Shown here: positions 1,248-64,000 of the stretch, in pieces
Layout: every line of letters begins with the position of its first letter
Numbering within the stretch: the stretch's first letter is position 1
Origin: a virus
Virus record (IMG/VR): IMGVR_UViG_3300036828_000667
Coordinates: 1-64,000 of that record
Reading direction: 5' to 3' (one strand)
Length of the DNA: 64,000 bases
Position numbers and translations under genes: made by a program
The notes under the pieces: generated by a model
What the model was told of the DNA's origin: nothing
The model's database searches: none
Seen by the model: the letters and a program-made list of their open reading frames with translations, nothing else

Positions 1248-2944
1248 GCGGCAAACCTCTCCAGTCTACGGAAGCCTTTCTCACTATCCGAACGACGTAG
1301 ATTTTCAGCTAGCACTCTAAGCTTTGACTTCAAGGGGTAGAAGTCTAAGTCTCTCGAAGAACGAAGTACTACATAATCCTGACTCGCTCCAGGCACTGCT
1401 CCTATACCACTAGCGCTAAACATCTTAGCTACATTACGGGGCATACCTAGAGTCACTAGTAAGTTGGCGTACAAATCTCCTTGGGCAGCTGGCATAACAG
1501 GTTGGCCACTCTGCGGATCTGTCGTAGCACTACTGGTTCTCCACGTGTTGATAAGAAGACCAGCCGTTTCAGCAATTTTGGCGTAACCATCAATCATCGT
1601 AAGAGCTAGTTGCGGAGGCTTCTTTATTCCTACAGTAACTTCAAAGTTTGATATGTCAGCTTTAGCGACATAGGTGGCAATAACTAGACATAACCTAACT
1701 AGACCCTCAGACCAAGCATTCTGATAATGAATTAATTTCCTGGCGAACACGACATCCTGAGCTTGTAGTGCTGAACCTCTATCAGTTGCAGTTCTATCGG
1801 CTAGAAGATATCCTTTTGGAATACCCGATGATTGGATAGCTTTATCTCTGAAGTACTCAACATCCTCCACACTACTAAGATCAACGTTTGAAGATAACTT
1901 TTCCGCCGCAAAGCCCTGGTCTGAGGGCATGAACAAGACATCTGTTAGACCTGGAGTTTTACCATAAGTCTTCGTACCAAGAGAGGTATCCTTAAATATG
2001 ATATTTTTGAATTGTGCCTTTAGAGCCTGTATTTTCTGTGCCGCCTGGACAGGGTTCGTACTGCCAGTAGGAATCTTTAGCACAAGTCGTTCTACTCGAC
2101 TCGCTCTGGAAAGAGCTAGTAGTGCTTCCAATGTAACTAGATGGTCAAAGTCAATTCTCATACCTTCCAAAAGTGATCTTCCGTACGGTCTGAAGTCTTG
2201 ATCAAATACGGTCATCTGGACAAATTCCCAGGGCTGTAATATCTTCTTACGTCTACCAGATGATGTTGGATTTTTCACCCATCTATTAAACTTGTCGTCT
2301 AGCCTATACCCTACCGCCAGATGGCCTCCGTCCTTAGGAATAACAGCTTCCCATTGGAGGGGATCAATGTATTCCAATCCTATATCAGTAACGTCGGTCT
2401 CTGGCTCTGGACGAGGTAATTCTATCTTGATACCAAGATCACCGTATTTGATTTGGTTTCTAATATAAGACCGACTACGCTTGATAATCTCATTCTTATC
2501 AAGCACAGCCATAACTTGAGCACCAACTGCTCTATCGTTAAATTTAATTGCTATAGGATCTTCGACAAAGCCAACTGCTAGACATTCATCGGCGTAAGTA
2601 TCTAAAGAAATACAAGCCTCGGCCATCGCATCGTCCATAATCTTATAGGTCTGAACACGTCTGTTTCTTTCGTTCTCAACTCGGGACTTACCAACTGTTT
2701 CCTCTAACCAGTGGTCAATGAACTGAAGCTTGATCTCGCCTTGTTGATTACTCAGGTCTATGTTCGGAGGAAGAGAAACATAGCTTCCATCGTCAGCCTG
2801 GACAACCTGAAGACCTAAGCGACCCGCTAATCCGGCAATACGATCTGGAGAGAGAGTGACCGTCTCCATAATGCTTGTCCCTGGAGTCCTCTGTACATTA
2901 GGTCCAGGTCCTAGCTGTGGTACAATTTCGTCATACCAGGGCAT
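1244..2944 (-). CDS. portal protein, T4 gp20-like
   Basis: Motifs YGRSLLE, R.SR..ER.V.KI..G, VEDVEYFR.K...GIPK.YL, AQDV.FAR; AGGAGA before ATG 2944. Confidence 0.88.
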   Translation of the reverse strand: MPWYDEIVPQLGPGPNVQRTPGTSIMETVTLSPDRIAGLAGRLGLQVVQADDGSYVSLPPNIDLSNQQGEIKLQFIDHWLEETVGKSRVENERNRRVQTYKIMDDAMAEACISLDTYADECLAVGFVEDPIAIKFNDRAVGAQVMAVLDKNEIIKRSRSYIRNQIKYGDLGIKIELPRPEPETDVTDIGLEYIDPLQWEAVIPKDGGHLAVGYRLDDKFNRWVKNPTSSGRRKKILQPWEFVQMTVFDQDFRPYGRSLLEGMRIDFDHLVTLEALLALSRASRVERLVLKIPTGSTNPVQAAQKIQALKAQFKNIIFKDTSLGTKTYGKTPGLTDVLFMPSDQGFAAEKLSSNVDLSSVEDVEYFRDKAIQSSGIPKGYLLADRTATDRGSALQAQDVVFARKLIHYQNAWSEGLVRLCLVIATYVAKADISNFEVTVGIKKPPQLALTMIDGYAKIAETAGLLINTWRTSSATTDPQSGQPVMPAAQGDLYANLLVTLGMPRNVAKMFSASGIGAVPGASQDYVVLRSSRDLDFYPLKSKLRVLAENLRRSDSEKGFRRLERFAA

Positions 2945-2952
2945 TATATCTC

Positions 2953-3438
2953 CTATCGGGCATAGCGATGGGGAGAATCCTTGTCGCTTATATACCACTC
3001 GAATTTCACTTTTGAAACAGGATCTTGTGCGATGATGTGAGCTTCAGAACCTGTAACCAATGCAGCTACCGCATATATCTTATTGTGATCCTGCTGTACT
3101 CCTTCAAACGCTAATATACGTGCGTTGATACAGCTAGTTATCGCATACTCTGAGAACTTTGAAAGATATATTCTACTGGATAGAAACAACAAGGTAGGTA
3201 TTTCTATCCTATTAGATACATTAAATTGACCTGAATTGATCCTTGGGTCACCAAGAACCTTGACGTTTATACGAAACTCACCACGACTTTCTTTCTTATA
3301 ATCTGTAATCTGGACTACGTCATTCCGAGAGAACGGTTTATCTGCAAGAATGCAAAAAGTATGATTTACAAACCCGTATTCATAGCTATGTAATCCATGG
3401 AAGTTCTTGCTACTGGAATAAATTAGGAAAGCGTACAT
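2953..3438 (-). CDS. hypothetical protein
   Basis: 161 aa, packed in operon. Confidence 0.65.
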   Translation of the reverse strand: MYAFLIYSSSKNFHGLHSYEYGFVNHTFCILADKPFSRNDVVQITDYKKESRGEFRINVKVLGDPRINSGQFNVSNRIEIPTLLFLSSRIYLSKFSEYAITSCINARILAFEGVQQDHNKIYAVAALVTGSEAHIIAQDPVSKVKFEWYISDKDSPHRYAR

Positions 3439-4547
3439 CAGATATTTTGAGTCATTCTGGCGTGGATTAAACCAGATGTCTCAACAAAATACTCTATCAT
3501 ACTTGAAGTATTAGCGACTGCGTATATTAATGTTTGAGTAGTCCCTGGCGCGTGTGCATAAGGCATATAATTAAACGGTGGCTGAGGAATACTTAACGTA
3601 TGAGGAGTTGGGCCTTGCTTCACGATAATAAATCCTGTCTGTCCAGGTTTAGCGTTAATAATAGAAGATACAGTAGAATTACCTGAAGCCACACTATAGG
3701 TGGCATTTTTAAATAAATTGAAGTCCCATACAACAGAAGATGCCCAATTTATAGCAACGGGAGTCATAGAATTCCAAAACACGTCGGTTGATATAAGTTT
3801 CTGTGCAGTAGCATTAAGCAGCTGTTGTAAATTAGCAATTGCTGAAGGATCAATATTGCCATATGCCAAGCTATTGAGAACGGCCAGAATACCTAGACCT
3901 AAGTTACCTCTTGCAACGGATGCTGTACTATAAAGCTCGGACAAGTTATTAGTTGGAATTAGGAAATTATTAGTATTCTGTGTAGCAGCTGATCCTAATC
4001 CCAGGTTTGATCTAGCTGCTGACTGACTAGATAAATCACCAAGGTTGTTACCTGCGATCAGCGCAGGCCCTTGCTCGACAATAGTCCAGTTACGCGCACC
4101 GTCACTCTCGACAACCAAATAACTGAAACGTTTATTTAACATCACAGCTGAGTTTAAACCATCAATAAAATCAGAACCGGCTGGAGCCACTGCTATAGGA
4201 AACTGACCAATCACACCAGCTAAATCAACTATCCTCCGACGCTGCCCTGGTGCCACAGAGTTAGCTTGGGTTAATGTCCAGGTCCTACCAGTTGAAAGCG
4301 CAGCTTGACTTACTAACTCAAAATCACTAGGCTTCATATTTATATTGATATCACCAACATAAGTAATGAGGCCTGTGCCTGATTTCGTTAATAGATAAGT
4401 TACTAGATCGCTAAAAGTCCCACCAAAAGTATTCCATGGGCCAATAGGATTCCCATTGACATCTAGAGGTCCATACCCCATACCAAAACGGTCTGTATCT
4501 TGGTATGGAGCCCTAGCTCTGGTGAAACCGTCAATGGTTTGTCCCAT
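3438..4547 (-). CDS. tail fibre-like structural protein
   Basis: NNL.DL...AARSNLGLG fibre motif twice; SDGA.NW.I motif. Confidence 0.7.
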   Translation of the reverse strand: MGQTIDGFTRARAPYQDTDRFGMGYGPLDVNGNPIGPWNTFGGTFSDLVTYLLTKSGTGLITYVGDININMKPSDFELVSQAALSTGRTWTLTQANSVAPGQRRRIVDLAGVIGQFPIAVAPAGSDFIDGLNSAVMLNKRFSYLVVESDGARNWTIVEQGPALIAGNNLGDLSSQSAARSNLGLGSAATQNTNNFLIPTNNLSELYSTASVARGNLGLGILAVLNSLAYGNIDPSAIANLQQLLNATAQKLISTDVFWNSMTPVAINWASSVVWDFNLFKNATYSVASGNSTVSSIINAKPGQTGFIIVKQGPTPHTLSIPQPPFNYMPYAHAPGTTQTLIYAVANTSSMIEYFVETSGLIHARMTQNI

Positions 4548-16675: not shown

Positions 16676-16760
16676 GCACACCGAACCGGAGCATACCTAC
16701 CCACGCCTTCCCGCGCCATTCCAAACCATACCCAACCTACCCTCACCACACCGCACCATA
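16676..16760 (+). ncRNA. pentamer element E1, 17 units
   Basis: (C/G)C-NNN x17; TTGACA 16640; ends CCACA CCGCA CCATA. Confidence 0.85.
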
Positions 16761-16777
16761 CTATTACCTAGTACATA

Positions 16778-17578
16778 CTACCCACTGTGAGGCAGGCTCA
16801 CCCCAACATTTGGAAGAACGGGCGAGACATCCGATGGACGCACCACACCAGCAGTCGCATTTGGCTGGACGTTCACGGGTGCGGTAACTGGCACTAAACC
16901 ACCAGCGTTCGGCCCTGTATAGTTGACTTGCTCGATATCAAGAATCGATACATTACTATAATCTTTTTCCTGTGCGACTCTCATAGCAATAGACTTGGCC
17001 TCTTCTGGAGAAGAAGCTCTAATCGATAGGTGCTCCGTTCGTGGCGTTTCTGTCTCCGGAGTCGAATACTGAATTTTCACGGCGAACGTATAGAGCCCTC
17101 CCGGAGCAGTGAGAGTAGGATCGTGACCTGCGAAGTCTTCACCAAACACAGCCACATGCACTGAACGCCTCATGGCATTTTCACTTATTTTCATGACTTG
17201 GGTTCCTGTCGTTACGATACAAGAATCACTGTAATGCGGTGACAGTTCCCAAGGAACATTAACACCGATATAGTTCAACGCTCTGGTGAGAATATCCCTA
17301 GGATTGTCTACACCGTATTGTTTAGCTAAAGTCCTAACCAAACTCCCTTGTGAGGTGTCATTGACCAAGGCCATGACATCCTCGACTGGCAAGTGATCTC
17401 CTCTTGCAATAGCATCAGTACTCGGATCACTAGGATCAGTATCAGGAGTACCAGGACGCTTAGACATCAGATGAATAGGGAGTGCATCTGAAAATGCGCA
17501 TATAAACTGGAAATCTCTTCGCGAGAAGTCATCTCCTAACATTCTTAATCTATCCCACACACGTAATGTCGTCACCAT
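16778..17578 (-). CDS. hypothetical protein (contains E1 match)
   Basis: 266 aa, GGAGA RBS. Confidence 0.75.
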   Translation of the reverse strand: MVTTLRVWDRLRMLGDDFSRRDFQFICAFSDALPIHLMSKRPGTPDTDPSDPSTDAIARGDHLPVEDVMALVNDTSQGSLVRTLAKQYGVDNPRDILTRALNYIGVNVPWELSPHYSDSCIVTTGTQVMKISENAMRRSVHVAVFGEDFAGHDPTLTAPGGLYTFAVKIQYSTPETETPRTEHLSIRASSPEEAKSIAMRVAQEKDYSNVSILDIEQVNYTGPNAGGLVPVTAPVNVQPNATAGVVRPSDVSPVLPNVGVSLPHSG

Positions 17579-20219: not shown

Positions 20220-20492
20220 TCATCCTGTAGGATGCTTAGAAGCATCTTCAGGTGTCTTTGCCTTATGGTGTTCTTCAGGTGCTTTTGCTTTATGGTCTTC
20301 AGGCTTCTTTGCCTTTACAGGCTCCTCGGGCGGGGGAGGCTCAACATGAACCGGGTAGACCGGCTGATCGTCAACGCCCTCGGGCTGATCGCCGAGCGTG
20401 TGGATCACGGGCCTAATCATCTCGTCCCGAGAATGACGATATTCTGGGAACCCACCATCAGCACCCACGATCTTTTCAACGTATTGAGCCAT
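20220..20492 (-). CDS. P/E/K-rich hypothetical protein (contains E2 match)
   Basis: AGGAGA RBS. Confidence 0.7.
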   Translation of the reverse strand: MAQYVEKIVGADGGFPEYRHSRDEMIRPVIHTLGDQPEGVDDQPVYPVHVEPPPPEEPVKAKKPEDHKAKAPEEHHKAKTPEDASKHPTG

Positions 20493-25081: not shown

Positions 25082-25783
25082 CTAAGACACGTTCCACTGA
25101 GTCTGAGTAGGCCAGCTGTATACGAGAGGCCATGGTAATGTTGGAGGAGTAAACCCACCTACAGGAAATATCGCTGTATTTGATATTCTGAGTTCGTCAA
25201 TGTAACCATTAAAAGGAGAGCCAGCAGTAGGGAAGACACTATTTCCTATTCCTACGCTAGCGGTTGCAGTACCAATATTCTGAGTGCTAACACCACTCCC
25301 GCTTGCTGACGGTACGCCATTAAGAAACCCAGTTACGTTATTAGAACTGTCTCTTTGCCATGCGACGTGATACCACGTACCTGTAACAGGTGTAAAATCA
25401 ATATGAAAAAAGTGAGTACCGGGTTGATCACTGAAATACAAATTAAGACCACCCCCTGTAATCCAATTGATAATATTAGTACCCATACCTAACATACATA
25501 TATTACCAGCTGTTGAATTCCAATTAACCCAAAAATCAAAAGTAAAAGGCGAACCAGACGGGAAATAGAAATCAGGACTAGGATCTATGGCTAAACCATC
25601 ATAATTACCACCTGTAGTGCAATTTAGTGATCCACTACCAAAGTAAGCGTTACTAGATATTGTACCGACACCTCCCTGAACACTGTATGGCGCTACATTG
25701 TGTCCATTACCAGAGACATCAGTAAAGGTGCTAGAACCTGGGGGACCATCGAAATGGCAAACGAACAGAGGATTAGTAGCCAT
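25082..25783 (-). CDS. LamG/concanavalin-A-like domain virion protein
   Basis: FT.DFW, WYHVA..R, FNGYIDELRIS. Confidence 0.82.
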   Translation of the reverse strand: MATNPLFVCHFDGPPGSSTFTDVSGNGHNVAPYSVQGGVGTISSNAYFGSGSLNCTTGGNYDGLAIDPSPDFYFPSGSPFTFDFWVNWNSTAGNICMLGMGTNIINWITGGGLNLYFSDQPGTHFFHIDFTPVTGTWYHVAWQRDSSNNVTGFLNGVPSASGSGVSTQNIGTATASVGIGNSVFPTAGSPFNGYIDELRISNTAIFPVGGFTPPTLPWPLVYSWPTQTQWNVS

Positions 25784-28700
25784 TATGAAGCATAACCATA
25801 GGACGAGCCATCGGCTATGATCTTAGAATGATCATCAGTAGTCCCCAACCATTGCCAGCAGTTAAACTTTGTGATCCCTTGGTCAGTTTTAAGAAAAACA
25901 TCTACGATTGGAGTCTGGGATAGAGGACCGCCTTGGCCTCCTCCAGTTGCTCCAGTCATACTGAACGAAACAACATCAGATAACCAATTAGCAAAACCTG
26001 AAAAGGAGTCAGCACCAACCCCACCACTCGGACCAGTTCTAGTAATAGTTCTTAACCCAGCCTGAGTTAGATCAATAGTAGCTGTAAAGTTGTTCTGGAT
26101 TAAATTGGAATCAAAAGCATTTGATGTTATACTAAAACGAAGACTGCTTGAACCTGTATAGATTGCTGGTCTGAGCACGTTTATGAGAAACGTATCAACG
26201 TTTCCCCACAAAATCATAGCATCAACGTAACCTGCGATAGACTCTTGCCAACCAAAGAATTCACGACGGCCTCGACTGAACAAAGGATCTTCAATAGAGC
26301 CATTTAGATCAGCAATCATACGTCCGCCTGTATTTCCAAATGCTGTCAACCTAGGCATTGGATGAGGACGGAATTTCAGAGCATTAGACACAGCAGTAAC
26401 AGTACCAGTAGCCGCAGAAAGATTAACTGGAGAACCGCCTTTCGAGGTGGCTACTTGAAATTGTCCCGTTGTCATACCAGCTGATAACACATAAAATGTC
26501 GTACTTTGATCAACAGGAAAAGTGCCGGTTGTTGTAAAATGGACAGGAGTATCAACAGATAAACTATGACCTGACCACAAAACAAAATTACCAGAAAATG
26601 TAACTGTAGATTTAGTACTGTTTCCAACAGGCTTTGATGTTAGAGTCGTCTCGAAACAGAAGTTGTTACTACCATCAGTAAAGATATTACCAACCATAAA
26701 TGGAGCACCCATATTCGCATGGACGCCTGCCATATCAGTAACAAACATTTTATGACCAGGAATAGCCCATTGGTTTATATTAGCCATTGAAGTGAGCGGA
26801 ATACGGAATGTACCATTGTCCCACGTGAACCTCTCGATCATATTATAAATCGCGGTAGGGCCGTTAGCATCGTCGAAGCGAGTAACAATATCAACTTTGT
26901 TAATTTCATTACCAAGCAATAAACAACTCTCTGTCACACCAAAAGTAGGACCAAATACCATATTTTGAATTTTACTTTCTTTGAACACGTTTCTTTTGAC
27001 AGTACCATACATACCAGCAAATTTGCAACCTTGTACACTAAGAACATTAGTAGCAGCACTAGCAAGATTAAGGCTAATATTTGTACCCTCGCAATGTTTA
27101 TATTCTAAATATTCTATGTTCTTATCTACCTCAATCCCGGTATTATCACCACAAACTCGACATCGTTCGAAGATCACACGTTTAGAGGTGCTAGGTTGTA
27201 ACCCCTGGCCATCTAAGGCACAGTCCTCAAATTTGACGAATCTGCCAGTCGCTATACTAGGTCCCCAGGGCTCTAAGGCACGAAAACCTCTAAATATTTG
27301 CTCTTGATCCCAGCCTGCACCCAACGCATAAATACCAGCTGGTCCTATTGGAGCATATTGATTTCCTCCGTCATTAGTACCAGGAAAAATCATAGGCCAT
27401 TTAGCTGAGAAGCTACAATACGTAGGTTCACTAATAGTGACAGCACCAGAAGAGTTAATCGCTATGATCTTGACATACTGACACACACCAAAATTAGGTG
27501 GGTTTGAGGCATTTACAACACTAGGATCAACAGGATTAGCTACATAGAAATTTTGTGTGTCTATCCCAGCAACTCGAATCCATTGACCAACATAAAAAAG
27601 ATTATATCTAGTAGGATCTTTAAGCTGGAGAACTGTAGAACCATGCTGGACTGAGTTGATAAGAGCCCACTGTCCAAAAGCAGCAGCATCAGTATTACCA
27701 CAGGATAACTGATCAAATACCGCACCATAAGCCTCTATAAGCATTTTCCTCTGAGAACCACTTCCTGGAACATAAGCGATTTCGTGAGGAAATCTATAAT
27801 ATCCAGGAGGAATAACAGTCTTCACCCACTCTCTATTCAGTGGAGTAACAAACAATGGATTAGAGAAACCAGTGTGATTACCCTGACCACCATCTGAAAA
27901 TGTAATAACTGATCCACCTGGAGTAGTTGATATCTTGAACGAAGTCCCAGGAACAAGCCCAGTTGCTGAAGCATAGAATAATGTAAGCTTGCATGGTTGA
28001 GTAGGTGAAATAAGGTTTTGAGGTAATGCTTGATCTGATACAAAGCAAACTGGAGTATTAGCTGTGATGTTATGACCGCTCCATTGTACGTCTGAGCCTG
28101 AGAACGTCACAGGACCATAAATGCCTGAAGCACCTCCGCTAGTGCTGACTGGCACGTTAGGAGGACTAGGAAGGACACCTCCGACTTGCCATGCATTATC
28201 AGCTGAGAATGAAAACGTATCCTTCGTGAAGTGTTGTCCAGGAGTACCTTGTGTGTAGTCGAGTACATAGTATGGCTGAAGAAGAGTTATTCCTGATGGG
28301 GCTGGCATACCTCCAGGTATGAAACAAAAACAGTCATTGCGTCTCATATCATGGTTAGGCCAATGAACGACAGTCGTACCGCCGCTATCGATAGTTACAG
28401 GATAACTACCACTTCTAACTTGCCGAGAGATCGAAGATGCCCAATCCCACCAAGGACCAGAAGTACCATCTATCACTTGATTCCATGTGACACCGTCCCC
28501 ATGAACCCCATAATCTCCAACATTCAATACAGGTAACTGTCCGGTAACTCTTTCCCAGTATTTACCGTCAGCAGACTGGACATTGTTAAACATTGGTCCT
28601 TGTGTTGTAGCTGGTTTCCAGAAACAGAAACCTTCCTTGTCACCAATCCCCAATGTGACTACGAAGCTCATACCAGGGTCTAATGTAGCTGCCTGTAACT

Positions 28701-28830: not shown

Positions 28831-31800
28831 TTAAGAGGCATACCCGTAGCAAGCGCCGTCGGCTATGATCTTAGAATGATCGTCCACAGTCCCTAACCAT
28901 TGCCAACAGTTAAGCTTAGTGATTCCTTGGTCAGTTTTAAGAAAAACATCTACGATTGGAGTGGCGTTAAGAGGACCACCCTGACCTCCTCCAGATGCTC
29001 CAATCTGCCATATCCCTATGTAATCAGATAACCAATTAGCAAAACCTGGGAAAGGAAGTGAGTCTGCTCCGATTGGAGTACTTGTAGTAGTTCTAGTAAT
29101 AGTTCTAAGTCCTGGTTGGGTTAGATCAATCGTGGCTGTGAAATTGTTCTGGATCAGAAGAGAGTCAAAAGCATTAGCTGACATATTCAAACGAAGACCG
29201 CTTGAACCTACATAAGTCGCTGGTCTGATCACGTTTATAAGGAAAGTATCTACGTTTCCCCAAAGTTGAATTCCATCAGTATATTGACCAGTATTTCCAT
29301 CTGACCAACCAAAGATCTGACGACGACCTCTACTGAATAGCGGCTCTTCGATAAGAGAGCCACACATATCACTAATCCCTCGTCCGCCTGTATTTGCAAG
29401 TGCTGTTAGTCGAGACGTGGGATGAGGACGGAATTTAAGAGCGTTAGATACCCCTGTATGAGTACCAGAACCTCCAGTGAAAGTAACAGGTGAACCTCCC
29501 TTGGAAGTGGCTACTTGGAAAGTTCCTGTAGTTAAGCCAGCTGATAATACATAGAGAGGAAAGCTTTGATTAAACCCAGAAGGCAAAGTTCCTGTCGTAA
29601 GGAAAAAGACCGGAGTATTAACAGGCAAGTTATGATTTGCCCATTGAACATTCGTACCAGAAAACGTAACTGTAGCTTTAGTAGTGTTCCCTACAGGCTT
29701 GGAAGAAAGAGTCGTCTCAAAACAGAAGTTACCACTACCATCGTTATAAACATTTCCAATTACAAATGGCATACCCATATTTTGAAATGCACCTGCCATA
29801 TCAGTGACAAAACACTTATTACCAGGAACACACCACTGATTTATAGGCCCCATCGCGGTAAACGGAATACTAAATGTGCCGTTATTGTACGTAAATCTTT
29901 CAATCATATTAACAATAGGATTTACCATACCAGCATCATCGAAACGATTAACAGTATCAATATAACGTATTTCGTTACCAAACAACAAACAGTTATCTGA
30001 CATTCCAAATGTAGGGCCAAAAACCATGGTACCGAGTTTACTATCTTTAACAATAGTTCTTTTTACTGTACCTCCTACGGTATAAAATTTAGAACCTTGT
30101 ATACTGAGAATATTATTACAAGCACTAGCAATATTTAGAGAAATTTTATCACCTTCAATATGAGTATATTCATCATGCTCAGAGAGTTTGTCCACTTCAA
30201 TCCCGGTATTGTAACCACAAACTTGACCACGTTCAAAAACTGTACGTCTAGATGACCCTGGTTGAACTCCTTGACCTTCCATTCTAACATCAAAAATATG
30301 CATAGTCCTCCCGTTAGAACTCTGAGGACCCCATGGTTCTAGCGAACGCATGCCAAAAGATACAATATCACAATCCCATCCTGGACCCATACCATAAATA
30401 CATGCTGGACCACTCCCAGGTATACTATCATCTGACATACCCGGATAAATCAAAGGCCATTTAGCTGAATAAGTATAAGCTGTAGGCTCGCTAATACCAA
30501 TGGCTCCAGATGAATTAACTGACGTGATCTTGACGTATTGAAAAACCTGTAGATTGATCGGCCATGAGTCAGGCCCTTGACTCGTAGGCGGAGCTTGATA
30601 ATGATTCTGTAAGTCCAAACCACCAATAAAAATCCATTGACCAACATAAAAACGATTATACCTAGTAGGATCTTTTAGCTGAAGTGTCGTAGCACCATTC
30701 TGGACTGAATTGATAAAACCCCAAGCTTTAGGATTCTGCATAATAACAGAACTACCATCAGTATTACCAACACCAGTAGAATCAAATATAGCACCATAGC
30801 TTTCCATAACCATTTTTCTCTGAGAACCACTCCCAGACTGTGCAGCAGACTCATGAGGCATTCTATAGTATCCAGGAGGAATAACGCTCTTCACCCACTC
30901 CCTATTCAGTGGGGTAATAAACACAGGATTAGAGTAACCAGTAGCATTACCAGAGCCACCATCTGTAAACGTAATAGGAGACCCACCTGGAGTAGACGAG
31001 ATTTTAAATGAAGTCCCTGCAACAAGTCCTGTCGATAAGGCATAGAAAAGCTGAAGTTTGCATGGTTGATTAGGTGGAATTAAAATCTGAGGTAATGCTG
31101 CATCTGAAGTAAAGCACACAGGTGTATTAGCTATGATATTATGTCCACTCCATTGCACATCTGATCCTGAGAACGTCACAGGACCAAAGATGCCCGAAGC
31201 ACCTCCAGTAGTACTAACAGGTACATTAGGAGGACTAGGCAAAAGACCACCGACTTGCCATGCATTGTCAGCAGAAAAGGCAAAGCTATCTCTGGTAAAG
31301 TATTGTCCAGGAGTACCTTGTCCCAGATCGAGTACAAAATATGGTTTGAGAAGAGTAAGTCCAGTTGGGAGTGTCATCCCTCCTGGTATGAAGCAAAAGC
31401 AATCGTTACGCCTCATATCATGCTTGGGCCAGTGAATGACCGTAGTACCTCCACTGTCAATAGTAGCTGGGAAACTCCCTCCTCTGTTCCGTCGAGTGAT
31501 TGTAGCTGAAAAATCCCACCATGGACCCGACGAACCATCATCTACTTGATTCCATGTAACACCATCACCATGAATTCCGTATTGTCCAACATTCAAAACT
31601 GGTAATTGACCTGTAACTCTTTCCCAGTATTTACCATCGGCAGACTGGATGTTATTGAACATTGGACCTTGGGTAGTAGCTGGTTTCCAGAAAGAGAAAC
31701 CTTGCTTATCACCTATCCCTAATGTTACTACGAAGCTAATCCCTGAATCTAAGGTTGCTTGTTGTAGTAGAGTAACAGAATCAAACTGAACGATCATACT

Positions 31801-40263: not shown

Positions 40264-40476
40264 TCAATCAGTGTCATAACCATCTGCGCTATAGTAGTTA
40301 TTTTCGTGGTACGGACACTCTTCTCTCATGAGAGCTAAGCAACGGCGAATAGATGCACTGCTTGTCCCATAGGACTCAACCACGTGGTCGCACCTTGAAC
40401 AAGTAACCTTGACACTGGGAACTTCCCCGTGATCACCTTCCAATTCGATTTCATCTATGGTACATTTTACCTTCAT
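40264..40476 (-). CDS. small Cys-rich protein (contains E5 match)
   Basis: CSRC, RRCL..MREECP. Confidence 0.7.
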   Translation of the reverse strand: MKVKCTIDEIELEGDHGEVPSVKVTCSRCDHVVESYGTSSASIRRCLALMREECPYHENNYYSADGYDTD

Positions 40477-40682
40477 GGCGCATCGTCAGGCCAGTATTTG
40501 AACTGGTTCCTAGATTGCCAATTATATATAGGTTGCCAGATCCCAATCTTCGCTAGTAGCTTCAAATACAATGGAGCGGCAGCATGACAAGCAACTAGCA
40601 TCTGATCGTAATGATCGTTGTGAGCCTTGATCCGGTCAAGAAAGGGAGTCTCTCCCTTCGTATGTTCACCGATTGATCCCAT
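40473..40682 (-). CDS. hypothetical protein (contains E6 match)
   Basis: ATG 40682 after GGAGG. Confidence 0.65.
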   Translation of the reverse strand: MGSIGEHTKGETPFLDRIKAHNDHYDQMLVACHAAAPLYLKLLAKIGIWQPIYNWQSRNQFKYWPDDAP

Positions 40683-47325: not shown

Positions 47326-47390
47326 TGCGGTTTGGTATGCTGTGGGCCGGCACGGCTGGGGGTGGCGCGGGAAGGCTTGGCATGGCTTGC
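47326..47390 (-). ncRNA. pentamer element E11, 13 units
   Basis: TTGACT(-) 47421-47426 N17 TAGTCT. Confidence 0.88.
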
Positions 47391-47433
47391 ACCAAAAAGA
47401 CTACTACCAAACTTACCGCTAGTCAACCACTAT

Positions 47434-47847
47434 TTACCTGATACGCTGCACTAAGCAACCTTCCGATTTTGCCTGCCACGTCCCACACCACTGGCCAGCT
47501 TCAACAGGTCGCAAGATCCACTTTCGTGAATATTCCCAGATCGGAACGACCTTTTTTTCCATGACCTTCTGGCCGTTCTCGTCTAAGACGAGTTTGTTCT
47601 TTTCACCCCGCTTAGACCGTGAGATTTCCTGTGTCCCGACTTGCGTGGCAAATTTCATTTTGACCGCGGACACAGCTGAACCCAAAGTTTTCATGGGATC
47701 GGGCATCTTCTCGGTCTTAGCTGCGAAGAAGCTCTGTCCGACGCCCAATTTATCAAGAGGATATTTGGCGACCCCATTACGGTTACCACGTTTCGACTTC
47801 GGCATTTCCACCGCGTCGATGATTTCAAACGTCACTTGCTCTTCCAT
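47434..47847 (-). CDS. putative DNA-binding phage protein (contains E10 and E11 matches)
   Basis: KYPLDKLGVGQSFF motif. Confidence 0.75.
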   Translation of the reverse strand: MEEQVTFEIIDAVEMPKSKRGNRNGVAKYPLDKLGVGQSFFAAKTEKMPDPMKTLGSAVSAVKMKFATQVGTQEISRSKRGEKNKLVLDENGQKVMEKKVVPIWEYSRKWILRPVEAGQWCGTWQAKSEGCLVQRIR

Positions 47848-49433: not shown

Positions 49434-49805
49434 TTGGACTTGCGCCTAGGATGGAGAATACCCAGGAGGATTGGCAAGATCCTTGGTTACCTGGAAGGGT
49501 TCAAATCCCTACATCCCTTGCCCTTAAGAAAGTTCAACCTTCCACCAAAAATAGGGGAAAGACCTTTGAAGAAAGAAAAGAAGGAGAAGGAGAACAAGGC
49601 ATATACTATAGCCGACGAACTATCCAATTGGCTAACTAAAAACAAAGTAGATATAGGTGATGCTATCGATGCCATGGCTAGGTTAATAGGATTGGCTGTA
49701 GGTGTCAGCGTAGACTATGAGGAAATAGAAACCATACTACAGAATATCTACAAGGAAAGTCTCAAAGCGGCGTACTTTTCGTATAAAAAGAATCAAGCTA
49801 ACTAG
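49434..49805 (+). CDS. hypothetical protein (start probably internal; contains E12 match)
   Basis: helical C-terminal half looks coding. Confidence 0.6.
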   Translation: MDLRLGWRIPRRIGKILGYLEGFKSLHPLPLRKFNLPPKIGERPLKKEKKEKENKAYTIADELSNWLTKNKVDIGDAIDAMARLIGLAVGVSVDYEEIETILQNIYKESLKAAYFSYKKNQAN

Positions 49806-49913: not shown

Positions 49914-49978
49914 TGCGGTTTGGCCTGCAGCGGAGCGGATAGGCTAGGTTCGGATAGGCAAGGAAAGGCGTGGTATGA
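49914..49978 (-). ncRNA. pentamer element E12, 12-13 units
   Basis: TTGACA(-) 50011-50016; ends CCAAA CCGCA. Confidence 0.85.
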
Positions 49979-56565: not shown

Positions 56566-57183
56566 TTGACCGTCTTGTCAAATGGGTGCAAAATGTCCAA
56601 GAAGTTCTCAATATCAGTGGACCATAATGCATTAAGGCAATTTCCGTTTCTGGATCGACTCCAGAAACAACAATTCCCCATTTCAACCCTCAATGAAGTT
56701 ATGTACGTTCTTGAAAATAGACCTGAAGGATTCAAAATCGAGTTGGTTTATAGTGTATTGAAAGTGTCGTTAATTAACGTCAATAGAGACACCAATGACG
56801 ACTACTTGGGATTGCCGAAGATTGAAGGTCAGTTGAAAGACCTGTGTGATGTGATCAGAGAGACCACGTCATATGGAACACGTGGGGGAGTCGACCCAAG
56901 GACACAAATATATTATAGTAGGAAGTCGTCTATTCTACAGGGTAGTAACCTTAGTGATGATGCTCTGATAGCTCCTAATTATGTTTCTAATAGAGGTTTG
57001 AGAAAACGCCATCCTCTTGATCTTGTGTCCACAGAAGAGGTCGTTAAAAGAAGGGAACTTGCTAACCGACACTGGCAAGAACAGAAAAAAGAGCAACGAA
57101 GAAAACAACAGTCCAGTATCAACTCAAAAATCCGGAATGCTCAGGACTTTTTGACAAGAAGCAATTTTGACAAGAAGCAATAA
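56566..57183 (+). CDS. hypothetical protein (contains E15 match)
   Basis: start probably 56593. Confidence 0.7.
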   Translation: MTVLSNGCKMSKKFSISVDHNALRQFPFLDRLQKQQFPISTLNEVMYVLENRPEGFKIELVYSVLKVSLINVNRDTNDDYLGLPKIEGQLKDLCDVIRETTSYGTRGGVDPRTQIYYSRKSSILQGSNLSDDALIAPNYVSNRGLRKRHPLDLVSTEEVVKRRELANRHWQEQKKEQRRKQQSSINSKIRNAQDFLTRSNFDKKQ

Positions 57184-57201
57184 TAATGTTAACCTTCTTC
57201 G

Positions 57202-57299
57202 GCGAACCGGTCCAATCCGAACCGACCCTATCCCTACCGGACCCTTGCACAGCATACCGCACATCTACCCCTCAGGCTGTATTACACAGCCTGAGGGGT
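57202..57299 (+). ncRNA. pentamer element E15 (12 units) with 3' hairpin
   Basis: TTGACA 57167 N17 TAACCT; stem 57267-57299. Confidence 0.87.
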
Positions 57300-57929: not shown

Positions 57930-58568
57930 ATGACCAAAAAGGGACCGCCTAACGTTTTTTGTCTACTATGCAATGAAGGATTTGGAAACAATGTTCATCT
58001 AGGTCGTCACGTACTGCAAATGCATGGAATTAACTTTGCCGATTATGATTGGTACAAAGTACAGAATAACATCGAACCACCTTGCTGTGCCAATTGTCAA
58101 GGTCCAGCAAAGATACACTCAGGTCGATATATAAAATTTTGCAGCACTGAGTGTAGTAGCGCCGGCCATATGATTTCTGACGAAGCTAGAGAAAGAGTTG
58201 CGAAGAGTGCGAAGCTAGTAGGTCTAGCAAATCGTACACATGGCGAAAGTAGTAAAGATAATCTGACACCTGAATATAGAGCGTATCACAGTATGCTCTC
58301 ACGATGCTTGAACTCAGCTGACGCACGCTATCCTAATTATGGCGGGAGAGGCATCAAAATCTGTGACCGTTGGCTTGGTGAAAATGGCTTCCGCCATTTT
58401 CTTGAAGATATGGGACGTAGACCGTCTAGCGACTTATCTCTTGATCGCTATCCCAACAATAATGGAAATTATGAGCCAAACAACTGCCGTTGGGCAACAC
58501 GTAGCCAGCAACAGCGTAATAAGAGTCGTGTAAAATCACTAGACAATCCTCCCGATATACTACCATGA
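57930..58568 (+). CDS. HNH endonuclease with N-terminal zinc fingers
   Basis: C2H2, YGGRGIKICDRW, SLDR..NNGNYEPNNCRWAT. Confidence 0.87.
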   Translation: MTKKGPPNVFCLLCNEGFGNNVHLGRHVLQMHGINFADYDWYKVQNNIEPPCCANCQGPAKIHSGRYIKFCSTECSSAGHMISDEARERVAKSAKLVGLANRTHGESSKDNLTPEYRAYHSMLSRCLNSADARYPNYGGRGIKICDRWLGENGFRHFLEDMGRRPSSDLSLDRYPNNNGNYEPNNCRWATRSQQQRNKSRVKSLDNPPDILP

Positions 58569-61623: not shown

Positions 61624-61645
61624 GGACGTGTAGCTCAGCGGTAGC
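61624..61645 (+). pseudogene. tRNA 5' fragment
   Basis: GGACGTG TA GCTC AGCGGTAG; no T arm found. Confidence 0.4.
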
Positions 61646-61648
61646 ATC

Positions 61649-62176
61649 ATGGCAAAACACAATGAAGAAAATGATCTATGGTTCCTTAGCAAAATCGCAG
61701 ATGGAACCATTTCTGTATCCGAAGACGGAGAGGTCTTCAACAACAAGACAGGTAGATATATAGGCGCTCAACAAGGAGCAGGTTACCTTAAGATTTCTAT
61801 GGCAAAGAGAGTTGATGGAAAACTTGTTATTGTCCATATGCAAATCCATAGGTTAGTATGGCTACATTTCAAAGGACCTATTCCTCAGGGACTAGAAGTC
61901 AATCACAAAGATTTAAACAAATCGAACCCACGATTGTCAAATCTAGATTTACAAACACCCAAAGGGAATGCTGAACATGCCACCTTAAATGGTGTTGACC
62001 GACGCTCAAAAACAGGAGGCCATAAAAACGCTAATGCCAAATTTACACGTGAACAAGTCGAGATGCTACGGAGACAATTCAAATCGAAAGAAACCACAGT
62101 TAAAGAAATAATGATAAACTATAGTGTTTCTAAGCCAGTTGTGTATTGGATGCTGGAAGGAAGGACCTATAAATAG
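61649..62176 (+). CDS. HNH endonuclease
   Basis: IHRLVW..F.GPIP..EVNHKD.NK.N..L.NL. Confidence 0.88.
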   Translation: MAKHNEENDLWFLSKIADGTISVSEDGEVFNNKTGRYIGAQQGAGYLKISMAKRVDGKLVIVHMQIHRLVWLHFKGPIPQGLEVNHKDLNKSNPRLSNLDLQTPKGNAEHATLNGVDRRSKTGGHKNANAKFTREQVEMLRRQFKSKETTVKEIMINYSVSKPVVYWMLEGRTYK

Positions 62177-62201: not shown

Positions 62202-62531
62202 ATGGTAGAATTTGGAGCGTTCATTCGCAAAGAACGAGAGGCCAGAGATATTAGCTTACGAAAGATGGCCAAGAAGATTGGTGTAAGTGCAACCTATCTA
62301 TCACAAGTGGAACTTGATAGGTTCCCACCACCAACTGAGGATAGGGTAAAGGCTATTGCCAAGATCATTGACTGTAATCCTGACTACCTACTGGCCAAAG
62401 CTGGACGGATCTCGACCGACATTTCCGACATCATTAAACGTCGTCCGATCGAGCTTTCGATGCTTATTCGAGCCGCCAAGTACTTGAGTAACGATGACAT
62501 TGCCCAATTGATTAATGCGGCGTCAGCGTAG
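62202..62531 (+). CDS. XRE-family HTH regulator
   Basis: SLRKMAKKIGVSATYLSQVE. Confidence 0.88.
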   Translation: MVEFGAFIRKEREARDISLRKMAKKIGVSATYLSQVELDRFPPPTEDRVKAIAKIIDCNPDYLLAKAGRISTDISDIIKRRPIELSMLIRAAKYLSNDDIAQLINAASA

Positions 62532-62625: not shown

Positions 62626-62811
62626 ATGCGTTGCGATCGGTGTCAGGGAACAGGCTGGGATCGGGCAGGAGTACACCCTGTACTTGGGCCGCTCTTCGAT
62701 TGCAACCATCCGTGTACTGAATGCGGCGGGTCAGGCATCGCCCACTGTTGCGACGGCATCTGCGAACAGCCTTCAATTGACAAGTCTATAGATGACAAGC
62801 TAACATCTTGA
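62626..62811 (+). CDS. small DnaJ-like zinc-finger protein
   Basis: CDRCQGTG, CTECGGSG. Confidence 0.6.
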   Translation: MRCDRCQGTGWDRAGVHPVLGPLFDCNHPCTECGGSGIAHCCDGICEQPSIDKSIDDKLTS

Positions 62812-62812
62812 C

Positions 62813-62877
62813 GCCTACCGTACCACTCCGACGCCAACCACACCGAGCCGGTCCATACCTTTCCAAACCAAACCACA
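62813..62877 (+). ncRNA. pentamer element E16, 13 units
   Basis: TTGACA 62777 N18 TAACAT; ends CCAAA CCACA CTTTTTT. Confidence 0.85.
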
Positions 62878-63314: not shown

Positions 63315-63410
63315 CCTCCCTTTTGTGTGACCATAAAGTTACACTTAAATTGAATCTGATTCTGGGAATTGACCTGCCAAGGCTGATAGGCGAAAACTCA
63401 TATTGCAAGG

Positions 63411-63514
63411 TCGAACCGCTGCCTTGCTTGCCAAACCGGGCCAAGCCGGCGCGGACCAAACCTCCGCACACCGCACAATGGGAGTAGTCAAATGGCTTGC
63501 AGACTACTCCCATT
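63411..63514 (+). ncRNA. pentamer element E17 (13 units) with 3' hairpin
   Basis: TTGACC 63369; GCACA CCGCA; stem 63477-63514. Confidence 0.88.
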
Positions 63515-63533
63515 AACACAGGAGTAAAACAAC

Positions 63534-64000
63534 ATGCTAATTTCAGTCACGATCTCCGGAATCCGACCTTTAATCCTCGACGCGTTTTCCGAGGAAGCGT
63601 TGCTTAAGGGGAAGGGAGGAAAGAGTACAGCCCAGCCCAAGGAACTGAGTCCCTTGGATCAAGCCAAGCGTAGGTTATACTATAATGGAGATGGTACCGA
63701 CGTTCCTATATTCCCAGCAGACAACCTACTCAGCTGTATCATCGCTGCCGGGCGGTTTATCAAGGTCGGGAAAAGGCAACTAACTACTCGCGACAGTACG
63801 ACAGTAACTTCATTCCTACAGATATCAGAACTATATCTTCCCATTAGGTCGATAGATGGATGGCGAGTCGACTCCAGGAGCATCGTCAACCCGTCTACAA
63901 AAGGTCGTCACATATGCTACCGTCCCATCTTTGACGACTGGGAGTTAGATTTCACGCTCGACATCGATACGAATGAAGCGAGCGACAGCTTGGTTAGACA
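63534..64000 (+). CDS. RAMP/Cas7-like protein, truncated by the window end (not in ORF track)
   Basis: AGGAG RBS; MLISVTISGIRPLIL..., PIFPADNLLSCI, D.R.IV...GRH..YRPIFDDWELDFTL.ID; no stop to 64000. Confidence 0.7.
   Translation, partial: MLISVTISGIRPLILDAFSEEALLKGKGGKSTAQPKELSPLDQAKRRLYYNGDGTDVPIFPADNLLSCIIAAGRFIKVGKRQLTTRDSTTVTSFLQISELYLPIRSIDGWRVDSRSIVNPSTKGRHICYRPIFDDWELDFTLDIDTNEASDSLVR

Follow-up and report, generated by a model that had tools for sequence, protein, structure and literature searches.

Why would a run of five-base repeats lying just ahead of a gene spell, three letters at a time, 13 residues of that gene's own product in other leucine and serine codons? The locus that raises this question comes from a 113.8-kb virus genome (43% GC) from soil. 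The first 64 kb of this genome (64,000 nucleotides) are referred to here as the window, and coordinates are those of the window unless they are given as genome positions.

A repeat element and the gene behind it

The element, E17, occupies positions 63411–63475 on the plus strand and consists of 13 units of the form [C/G]C+NNN: TCGAA CCGCT GCCTT GCTTG CCAAA CCGGG CCAAG CCGGC GCGGA CCAAA CCTCC GCACA CCGCA. Its unit-final triplets (GAA GCT CTT TTG AAA GGG AAG GGC GGA AAA TCC ACA GCA) decode to EALLKGKGGKSTA. Codons 21–33 of the gene that follows, vipr (63594–63632, plus strand), read GAA GCG TTG CTT AAG GGG AAG GGA GGA AAG AGT ACA GCC and decode to the same peptide. The sequence-only reading of this locus had claimed that E17 spells 13 residues of the putative effector, that the only differences at the first two codon positions are synonymous, and that the two terminal units form a conserved 3′ end. 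All of this survived re-parsing: the peptides agree at 13/13 residues; the four missed letters fall at two Leu codons and one Ser codon (CTT/TTG, TTG/CTT and TCC/AGT, read as CT/TT, TT/CT and TC/AG), all synonymous; and the terminal units GCACA CCGCA are common to many other elements. Overall, 27/39 nucleotides are shared, with 22/26 identities at positions 1 and 2, which are the letters read under the published rule, and 5/13 at the third base. Because the last two units belong to a shared 3′ end, the match amounts to 11 independent units and 18/22 read letters. The repeat tract and the matching segment are 119 bases apart.

With many K and G residues in the peptide, and with the constant tail accounting for two of its units, we considered a chance resemblance of a low-complexity sequence. 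When the unit order of E17 was shuffled 1,000 times and compared in six frames with the whole 113.8-kb genome, the best match reached at most 9/13 residues (mean 6.5), which rules out a chance match; at positions 1 and 2, the same shuffles reached at most 20/26. The real match, moreover, lies in the cognate gene close by, and a further eight to nine guides fit the genes beside them. We give chance next to no credence.

E17 has further elements on either side, on the plus strand. Upstream is a promoter-like site (63369–63398) with TTGACC (63369–63374), an 18-nt spacer and a weak −10 hexamer, AAAACT (63393–63398). Downstream, a hairpin at 63477–63514 caps the guide as its 3′ tail (13-bp stem; minimum free energy of −41.9 kcal/mol, z = −4.3). 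No U run follows the hairpin, so read-through into vipr is possible.

The vipr gene (63534–64000 on the plus strand, continuing past the window to genome position 64175) encodes a small Cas7-like RAMP protein of 213 amino acids. The product falls in PHROG 4652 (function unknown) and in no Pfam family. An AlphaFold model built with 34 homologues has a pLDDT of 81, and its top Foldseek matches are Csm3/Cas7 proteins of types III-A and VII (E = 2e-6). Comparison by hhalign of the family profile with the 195-amino-acid protein of the SUSP1 locus gave a probability of 98.5% (E = 3e-15, 164 columns), in an alignment that spans YRPIF.DW and the G-loop. We collected 95 homologous proteins, the closest of which is 66% identical; the loop that contains the peptide spelled by E17 is the family's most variable one.

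Phage systems of this kind are already published, in preprints of 2026, under the name VIPR, and guides directed at vipr are already known. VIPR combines a small ancestral RAMP protein (Vipr; about 20 kDa, a single RRM with G-loop and thumb) with vrRNAs that consist of YNNGG repeats and a 3′ tail; there is one protomer per repeat, GGY is buried and NN pairs with double-stranded DNA, one target base in three, mostly the wobble position, is left unread, competing phages and satellites are transcriptionally silenced, and the identity cut-off for targets was set at 0.8 (bioRxiv 10.64898/2026.04.26.720920,.720927). The Csm3/Cas7 fold, the SUSP1 profile match, the guide array and the reading rule described below together identify the present system as VIPR. 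As judged from sequence, the open reading frame at 63534 is the Vipr protein of the system and E17 is a vrRNA.

The surroundings of vipr are sparse. No gene lies directly beside it on the same strand and no obvious vap accessory gene adjoins it; two small ORFans are found nearby on the opposite strand, and a protein of the HTH_3 (XRE) family is encoded 1 kb upstream (62202–62531; E = 1e-12). CRISPR-type repeats are absent, and the RAMP gene is the sole cas-like gene. Within the guide array, a 66-amino-acid open reading frame with its own ribosome-binding site (P0002; L002:2950–3150, genome 64949–65149) encodes a protein paralogous to Vipr over its C-terminal third (FEDWQLDFTLD ... GLGSMRPERHGPYGQF; PHROG 4652, E = 2e-9); from this resemblance, the frame may be what is left of another vipr gene, either a second copy or a captured one.

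Guides across the genome and how they are read

We found 29 pentamer runs with a strict 5-nt period in the genome, compared with 0–1 in shuffled sequence. Immediately behind vipr, about 12 of them make up an array (genome 64183–65414), and a search of the arrayed units against their own genome returned no matches. The other units, about 16, are solo and dispersed over 16–68 kb on both strands. Upstream of 14/16 dispersed units, a TTGAC[A/C/T] box (background frequency of 0.0014 per base) lies 35–47 nt before the first pentamer, often with a TAnnnT hexamer 16–18 bases past it. Stable 3′ hairpins (z = −4.2 to −5.3) follow a shared CCGCAC end in E17 and three other dispersed units; the sequence of this 3′ tail differs from the SUSP1 pseudoknot. 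The clearest mini-gene lies at 62777–62877 on the plus strand and comprises TTGACA-18-TAACAT, 13 units (62813–62877) and a T run; it has no self match.

Nine or ten dispersed units spell a peptide of a gene 59–383 bases away. Identities at positions 1 and 2 in the guide–neighbour pairs, including both vipr-directed guides, are 24/26, 17/18, 16/18, 13/16, 20/20, 12/14, 22/26 and 34/38. The plus-strand guide at 16676–16760 spells GIYTFAIKIQYST, and the resident gene encodes GLYTFAVKIQYST at 17060–17098 on the minus strand; in the core, 24/26 read letters agree. Three further plus-strand guides also match minus-strand sites: 20547–20611 matches a neighbouring gene at 20352–20378 (17/18 read letters), 40182–40226 matches 40285–40311 (YHENNYYSA, 16/18) and 40725–40779 matches 40635–40658 (KGETPFLD, 13/16). 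On the minus strand, the guide at 47326–47395 spells KMKFATQVGT of the gene just upstream (47632–47661, minus strand), with 20/20 read letters and 2/10 third bases identical. The plus-strand guide at 57197–57261 lies behind the gene at 56566–57183 and matches its positions 56794–56814 (NDDYLGL), with both Leu codons block-swapped. A further pair (49914–49973 and 49766–49789) is antisense to an open reading frame and weak (E = 0.55), and was left out of the statistics. Apart from the vipr-directed guides, the self-like guides match ORFan genes in their middle or at their 3′ end rather than promoters.

This layout is not general, because the complete phage G001 of the close clade (47.6 kb) has no dispersed or self-like guides; it carries an array only, with a best self match of 16/20. 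Among other close-clade loci, L003, L005 and L006 show no clear self-vipr guide. The L003 phage has a regular array (L003:6600–7860) whose pentamer tracts run to 55–160 bases, always a multiple of five, with CCGCACCACA GGCGACAG between them; the motif MIVR[A/V]PTF occurs in two of the tracts, and no targets of this array were found in its own 47.6-kb genome.

The ten guide–gene pairs show which letters agree. Identity is 86/105 (82%), 99/105 (94%) and 28/105 (27%) at codon positions 1, 2 and 3, and a translation-free scan in three phases and on both strands returned significant neighbours only when the third base was ignored. The published rule, by which two letters are read and the wobble base is skipped, is thus reproduced in this genome.

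The constant letters are different. On the vipr strand, the units have the composition [C 80%/G 19%]-C 98%-N-N-N, and the GGY motif of VIPR is not found. We treat CC as a variant and retain the system within VIPR, as the preprints allow 'a related consensus'. The dispersed units are mini-genes in the CC sense, because the TTGAC boxes lie upstream and the hairpins downstream in that sense; a GG-sense reading was rejected on this promoter evidence and on covariation with the protein. In the register of the published structures, the unit is x-[C/G]-C-N-N here compared with G-G-Y-N-N in SUSP1-type VIPR. The SUSP1 residues H17 and D177, which hold the first guanine, and W178, which stacks on the second, correspond to D16, V169 and M170 here, whereas R138 and R179 are kept. 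Across 50 loci, all Vipr proteins with G-x-G-[V/S]-M-R-P are accompanied by CC-periodic runs on their own strand, and all those with D-[F/Y]-R-P by GG-periodic runs or none.

The freed position x (G1 in SUSP1) is the third base of the decoded triplet, and it tracks the purine or pyrimidine class of the codon. In 24/25 two-fold codons, counted by hand in alignments of five pairs found without translation, x keeps the required class, yet it is usually the other base of that class. If the third base is read, this clade uses a triplet code, which raises the question of whether some VIPR clades read triplets rather than doublets. Three features are new here. The first is the use of CC for GG as the constant letters, with covarying G-contact residues; the second is an informative third base; and the third is a genome-wide set of about 16 putative guide mini-genes, most with a promoter-like box and nine or ten beside near-self genes. 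The switch from GG to CC with matched contact residues offers a natural experiment on RNA selection by Vipr.

Several observations were made in passing. Ahead of the guide at 57197, the promoter box TTGACAagaagcaat occurs in tandem duplicate (57150–57195). At least four free-standing genes resembling HNH/AP2-type homing endonucleases (57930–58568, 61649–62176, L002:4254–4808 and L002:11065–11607; recognized by eye from HRLVW and NHKD.N..NP) share their part of the genome with the solo guides. A 3-kb tandem duplication on the minus strand (25783–28081 compared with 28831–31150; 72–84% identity; repeat families D2–D8, spacing of around 3,060) probably reflects a large structural gene present as two copies that have diverged. 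The sequence at 61625–61650, GTGTAGCTCAGCGGTAGC, resembles the 5′ half of a tRNA; ARAGORN found no tRNA in the window.

Silent differences between guides and resident genes

Where guides and resident genes encode the same residue, they tend to use different codons. In eight pairs, 76 same-residue codons had a synonymous alternative available; 17 of these were identical, compared with 29.5 expected from random choice according to the codon usage of this genome (P = 0.0012). Six-fold codons were in the same block in 2/10 cases, compared with 5.3 expected (P = 0.038, ten codons only). As E17 misses only where a difference is silent, either the gene has diverged under constraint on its protein or the guide was copied from a different functional allele; drift of an untranslated guide is unlikely, because its misses would not be confined to silent differences.

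One way to account for these differences is that E17 was once a match for an ancestral allele of vipr and has since become idle or begun to decay, with silent differences that reflect ordinary divergence. The weak −10 hexamer and the failure to find a present-day target are what such a relic would leave. Its 13/13 units are nevertheless in register, its hairpin is stable, and two separate soil studies contain the identical locus. The codon differences also exceed saturation, while the peptide has kept 13/13 residues in a loop that varies more than any other in the family, where neutral divergence that saturates silent sites should also have changed residues. We regard a relic as very improbable.

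Other accounts of the pattern were tried and rejected: translation of the pentamers, as several units decode to stop codons; tRNA or T-box-like sensing, as synonymous codons use different tRNAs; and a deaminase-like copying bias, as many third-base differences are transversions.

With confidence only a little above even, we favour a reading in which E17 is a guide against the vipr genes of close relatives and the resident copy has been silently recoded. By the mechanism established for the SUSP1 system, Vipr protomers would polymerize on the guide RNA, one per five-base unit, with the constant letters buried; the variable letters would pair with double-stranded DNA in three-base steps, and a bound site would block transcription. 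The true target would be the vipr gene of very close relatives competing in the same cells. The resident gene would have kept its peptide while both Leu codons and the Ser codon moved to the other block; its site also differs at 8/13 third bases. The ribonucleoprotein would then spare the resident site, and a guide-perfect rival allele would exist. Given that the guide ignores or tolerates wobble changes, a swap of six-fold codon blocks would be the only silent escape; and with 119 bases between them, the guide and the resistant allele would be inherited together. If the third base is skipped in this clade, as under the published rule, the excess of third-base differences would not be protective and would need another cause.

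E17 is not the only guide directed at vipr. A second lies directly behind the gene (genome 64183–64287) and matches codons 165–183 (17/19 amino acids, 34/38 read letters); both guides are in codon phase. The second guide fits the resident vipr at 0.89, that of L003 at 0.84 and that of L006 at 0.82, all above the 0.8 cut-off. In a distant GG-type clade (L017, L020 and L021; around 40% identity), a guide upstream of vipr spells the N terminus of its own Vipr, HITGVTPLICNRFS, with 22/28 read letters. The third base of this guide (L017:3360–3429 with L017:3482–3523) is a constant G, and its fit is 18/20 on the vipr of L009/L010 and 16/20 on its own.

These self matches raise autoregulation as an alternative, in which Vipr loaded with E17 binds resident codons 21–33 despite three mismatched units and damps its own gene; with the guide in the vipr leader, guide dose would track vipr expression. 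The residual self identity of 0.82–0.85 passes the published 0.8 cut-off, so the ribonucleoprotein might still bind, and no better match than the resident gene turned up anywhere. Co-transcription is plausible, with E17 between the promoter-like site and the vipr start and no U run after the hairpin. The close fit of the second guide to the 3′ part of vipr and the vipr-directed guide upstream of vipr in the distant clade point the same way. However, a regulator should keep its matches, yet all six-fold codons in the site differ in block from the guide, and the codon statistics argue against autoregulation because selection seems to have removed matches rather than kept them. Codons 165–183 of 213 are a poor position for feedback, the other self-like guides are aimed away from promoters, and the guide of the L017 clade has its better fit on a foreign vipr. 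We consider autoregulation unlikely.

A guide against relatives with a recoded resident copy predicts a rival allele, and we searched for one. The exact decoded E17 (33 bases) was not found in viral contigs, and a degenerate pattern for any EALLKGKGGKS allele, in either codon block, is absent from viral and metagenome contigs. The best match of E17 anywhere is the resident vipr (0.82), with other known vipr genes at 0.64 or less; no non-self vipr gene fitted better than the resident one, which is weak evidence given the lack of close relatives in the databases. The sequence-only reading had pointed to an allele with guide-type codons as its check, and neither the viral nor the metagenome collections yielded one. 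Its proposal of self-escape by recoding, with the guide aimed at a rival allele, thus holds in part: the misses are all silent and the codon statistics agree, but the rival allele was not found. Absence of this allele is weak evidence, because the databases contain no close relative of this phage. In GenBank phages, there is no Vipr of this clade, and the nearest phages by terminase are 34–37% identical. Homologues of two target genes (137 and 266 amino acids) were not found in viral contigs, and exact NN-skip patterns, which tolerate not even one mismatched unit, revealed no targets of two array guides in viral and metagenome contigs, a weak negative.

In two soil metagenomes, an identical locus co-occurs with a vipr variant at around one-fifth to one-third of its depth (contig level). 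All ten listed differences of the variant (L002:1819–2045, genome 63818–64044) are silent, nine at wobble positions and one CGG>AGG, which falls inside the target of the second guide. Close rivals with silent vipr differences exist. The contig-level tables of the soil runs also show joints in the array region (L002 around 2100–3700).

Solo guides could serve another purpose if they load onto, or soak up, the Vipr of a co-infecting rival, turning the machinery of the rival on its own genes; recoding of the resident gene would again be self-protection. Satellites and VIPR-null phages have been reported with solo vrRNAs that redirect the Vipr of another element, and most dispersed units here (14/16) have their own promoter-like TTGAC box. 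This phage, however, has its own vipr, which makes hijacking unneeded, and the covariation of the CC letters with the G-loop means that its RNAs would fit only a Vipr of the same clade. No evidence here separates this possibility from the reading that we favour; we judge it improbable.

If E17 is a guide against the vipr of relatives and its resident copy is recoded, the locus bears on a broader problem. VIPR has no PAM and no known distinction between self and non-self, and a phage that aims guides at genes common to close relatives must protect its own copies. The locus suggests a rule for doing so, in which silent escape moves six-fold codons (Leu, Ser and Arg) to the other block, as the resident genes show. 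If confirmed, the rule predicts immunity and escape in VIPR conflicts and would aid the design of guide-resistant rescue genes. We also put forward, as possible rather than probable, a wider proposal: that this CC-type VIPR, its first constant position freed, reads whole codons as three contiguous target bases per five-base unit, and that the roughly 16 solo guides, nine or ten of them welded to silently recoded, resistant copies of the genes that they attack, form a genome-wide poison–antidote set. Such a set, if real, would decide the winner of mixed infections, and its cassettes would spread by recombination.

Comparison with known systems

The Cas7 proteins of Class 1 CRISPR systems (Csm3 and type VII) resemble Vipr in their RAMP fold, G-loop and thumb, and in the periodic flipping of bases on the guide. 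The present locus differs in that it has neither CRISPR repeats nor cas1 or cas2, and in its period of five rather than six bases, without a contiguous spacer.

The type II VIPR of Escherichia phage SUSP1 is the closest in plan. Both systems are phage-borne, with a single small Cas7-like protein and five-base repeat guides that have a structured 3′ cap, one upstream and an array downstream of the gene. In both, two letters are read per unit, the wobble base is skipped and targets lie in coding sequence. The constant letters are GG in SUSP1 compared with [C/G]C on the vipr strand here, and a further difference is the dispersal of about 16 solo guides, of which 14 carry a promoter-like box. Matches to the same contig exceed 0.8 here, whereas the VIPR preprints found none at that level. 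Among the alternative repeats NNNGG, YNNNG and NNNNG of the VIPR type classification, the units here, which read C-NN-x-[C/G] in the Y-NN-G-G register, come closest to YNNNG, with the first guanine free; the second guanine is C in around 80% of units here.

Free-standing homing endonucleases of T4-like phages and synthetic cleave-and-rescue drives, which carry a recoded rescue copy, place a sequence-specific weapon beside a resistant allele of its target, so that the two are inherited together. They cut, whereas such VIPR is reported to silence, and this vipr has no linked nuclease.

A precedent for avoiding autoimmunity through an imperfect match to the carrier itself comes from vrRNAs that target other vrRNAs, for which the self match is below the non-self match (bioRxiv 10.64898/2026.10.15.759431). 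Their target is a non-coding vrRNA gene, whereas here it is coding sequence and the mismatches are silent only.

A parallel in choice of target is found in VIPR-null SUSP1-like phages, which carry solo vrRNAs aimed at the early codons and the end of competitors' vipr genes and interpreted as weapons against the VIPR of those competitors (bioRxiv 10.64898/2026.10.15.759431). The two guides described here likewise address early codons and the gene end, with the skipped base on the wobble position. The VIPR-null phages face no autoimmunity problem, because they have lost vipr; the carrier here, in contrast, retains a vipr that looks functional and specifies the identical peptide with alternative Leu and Ser (and Arg) codons.
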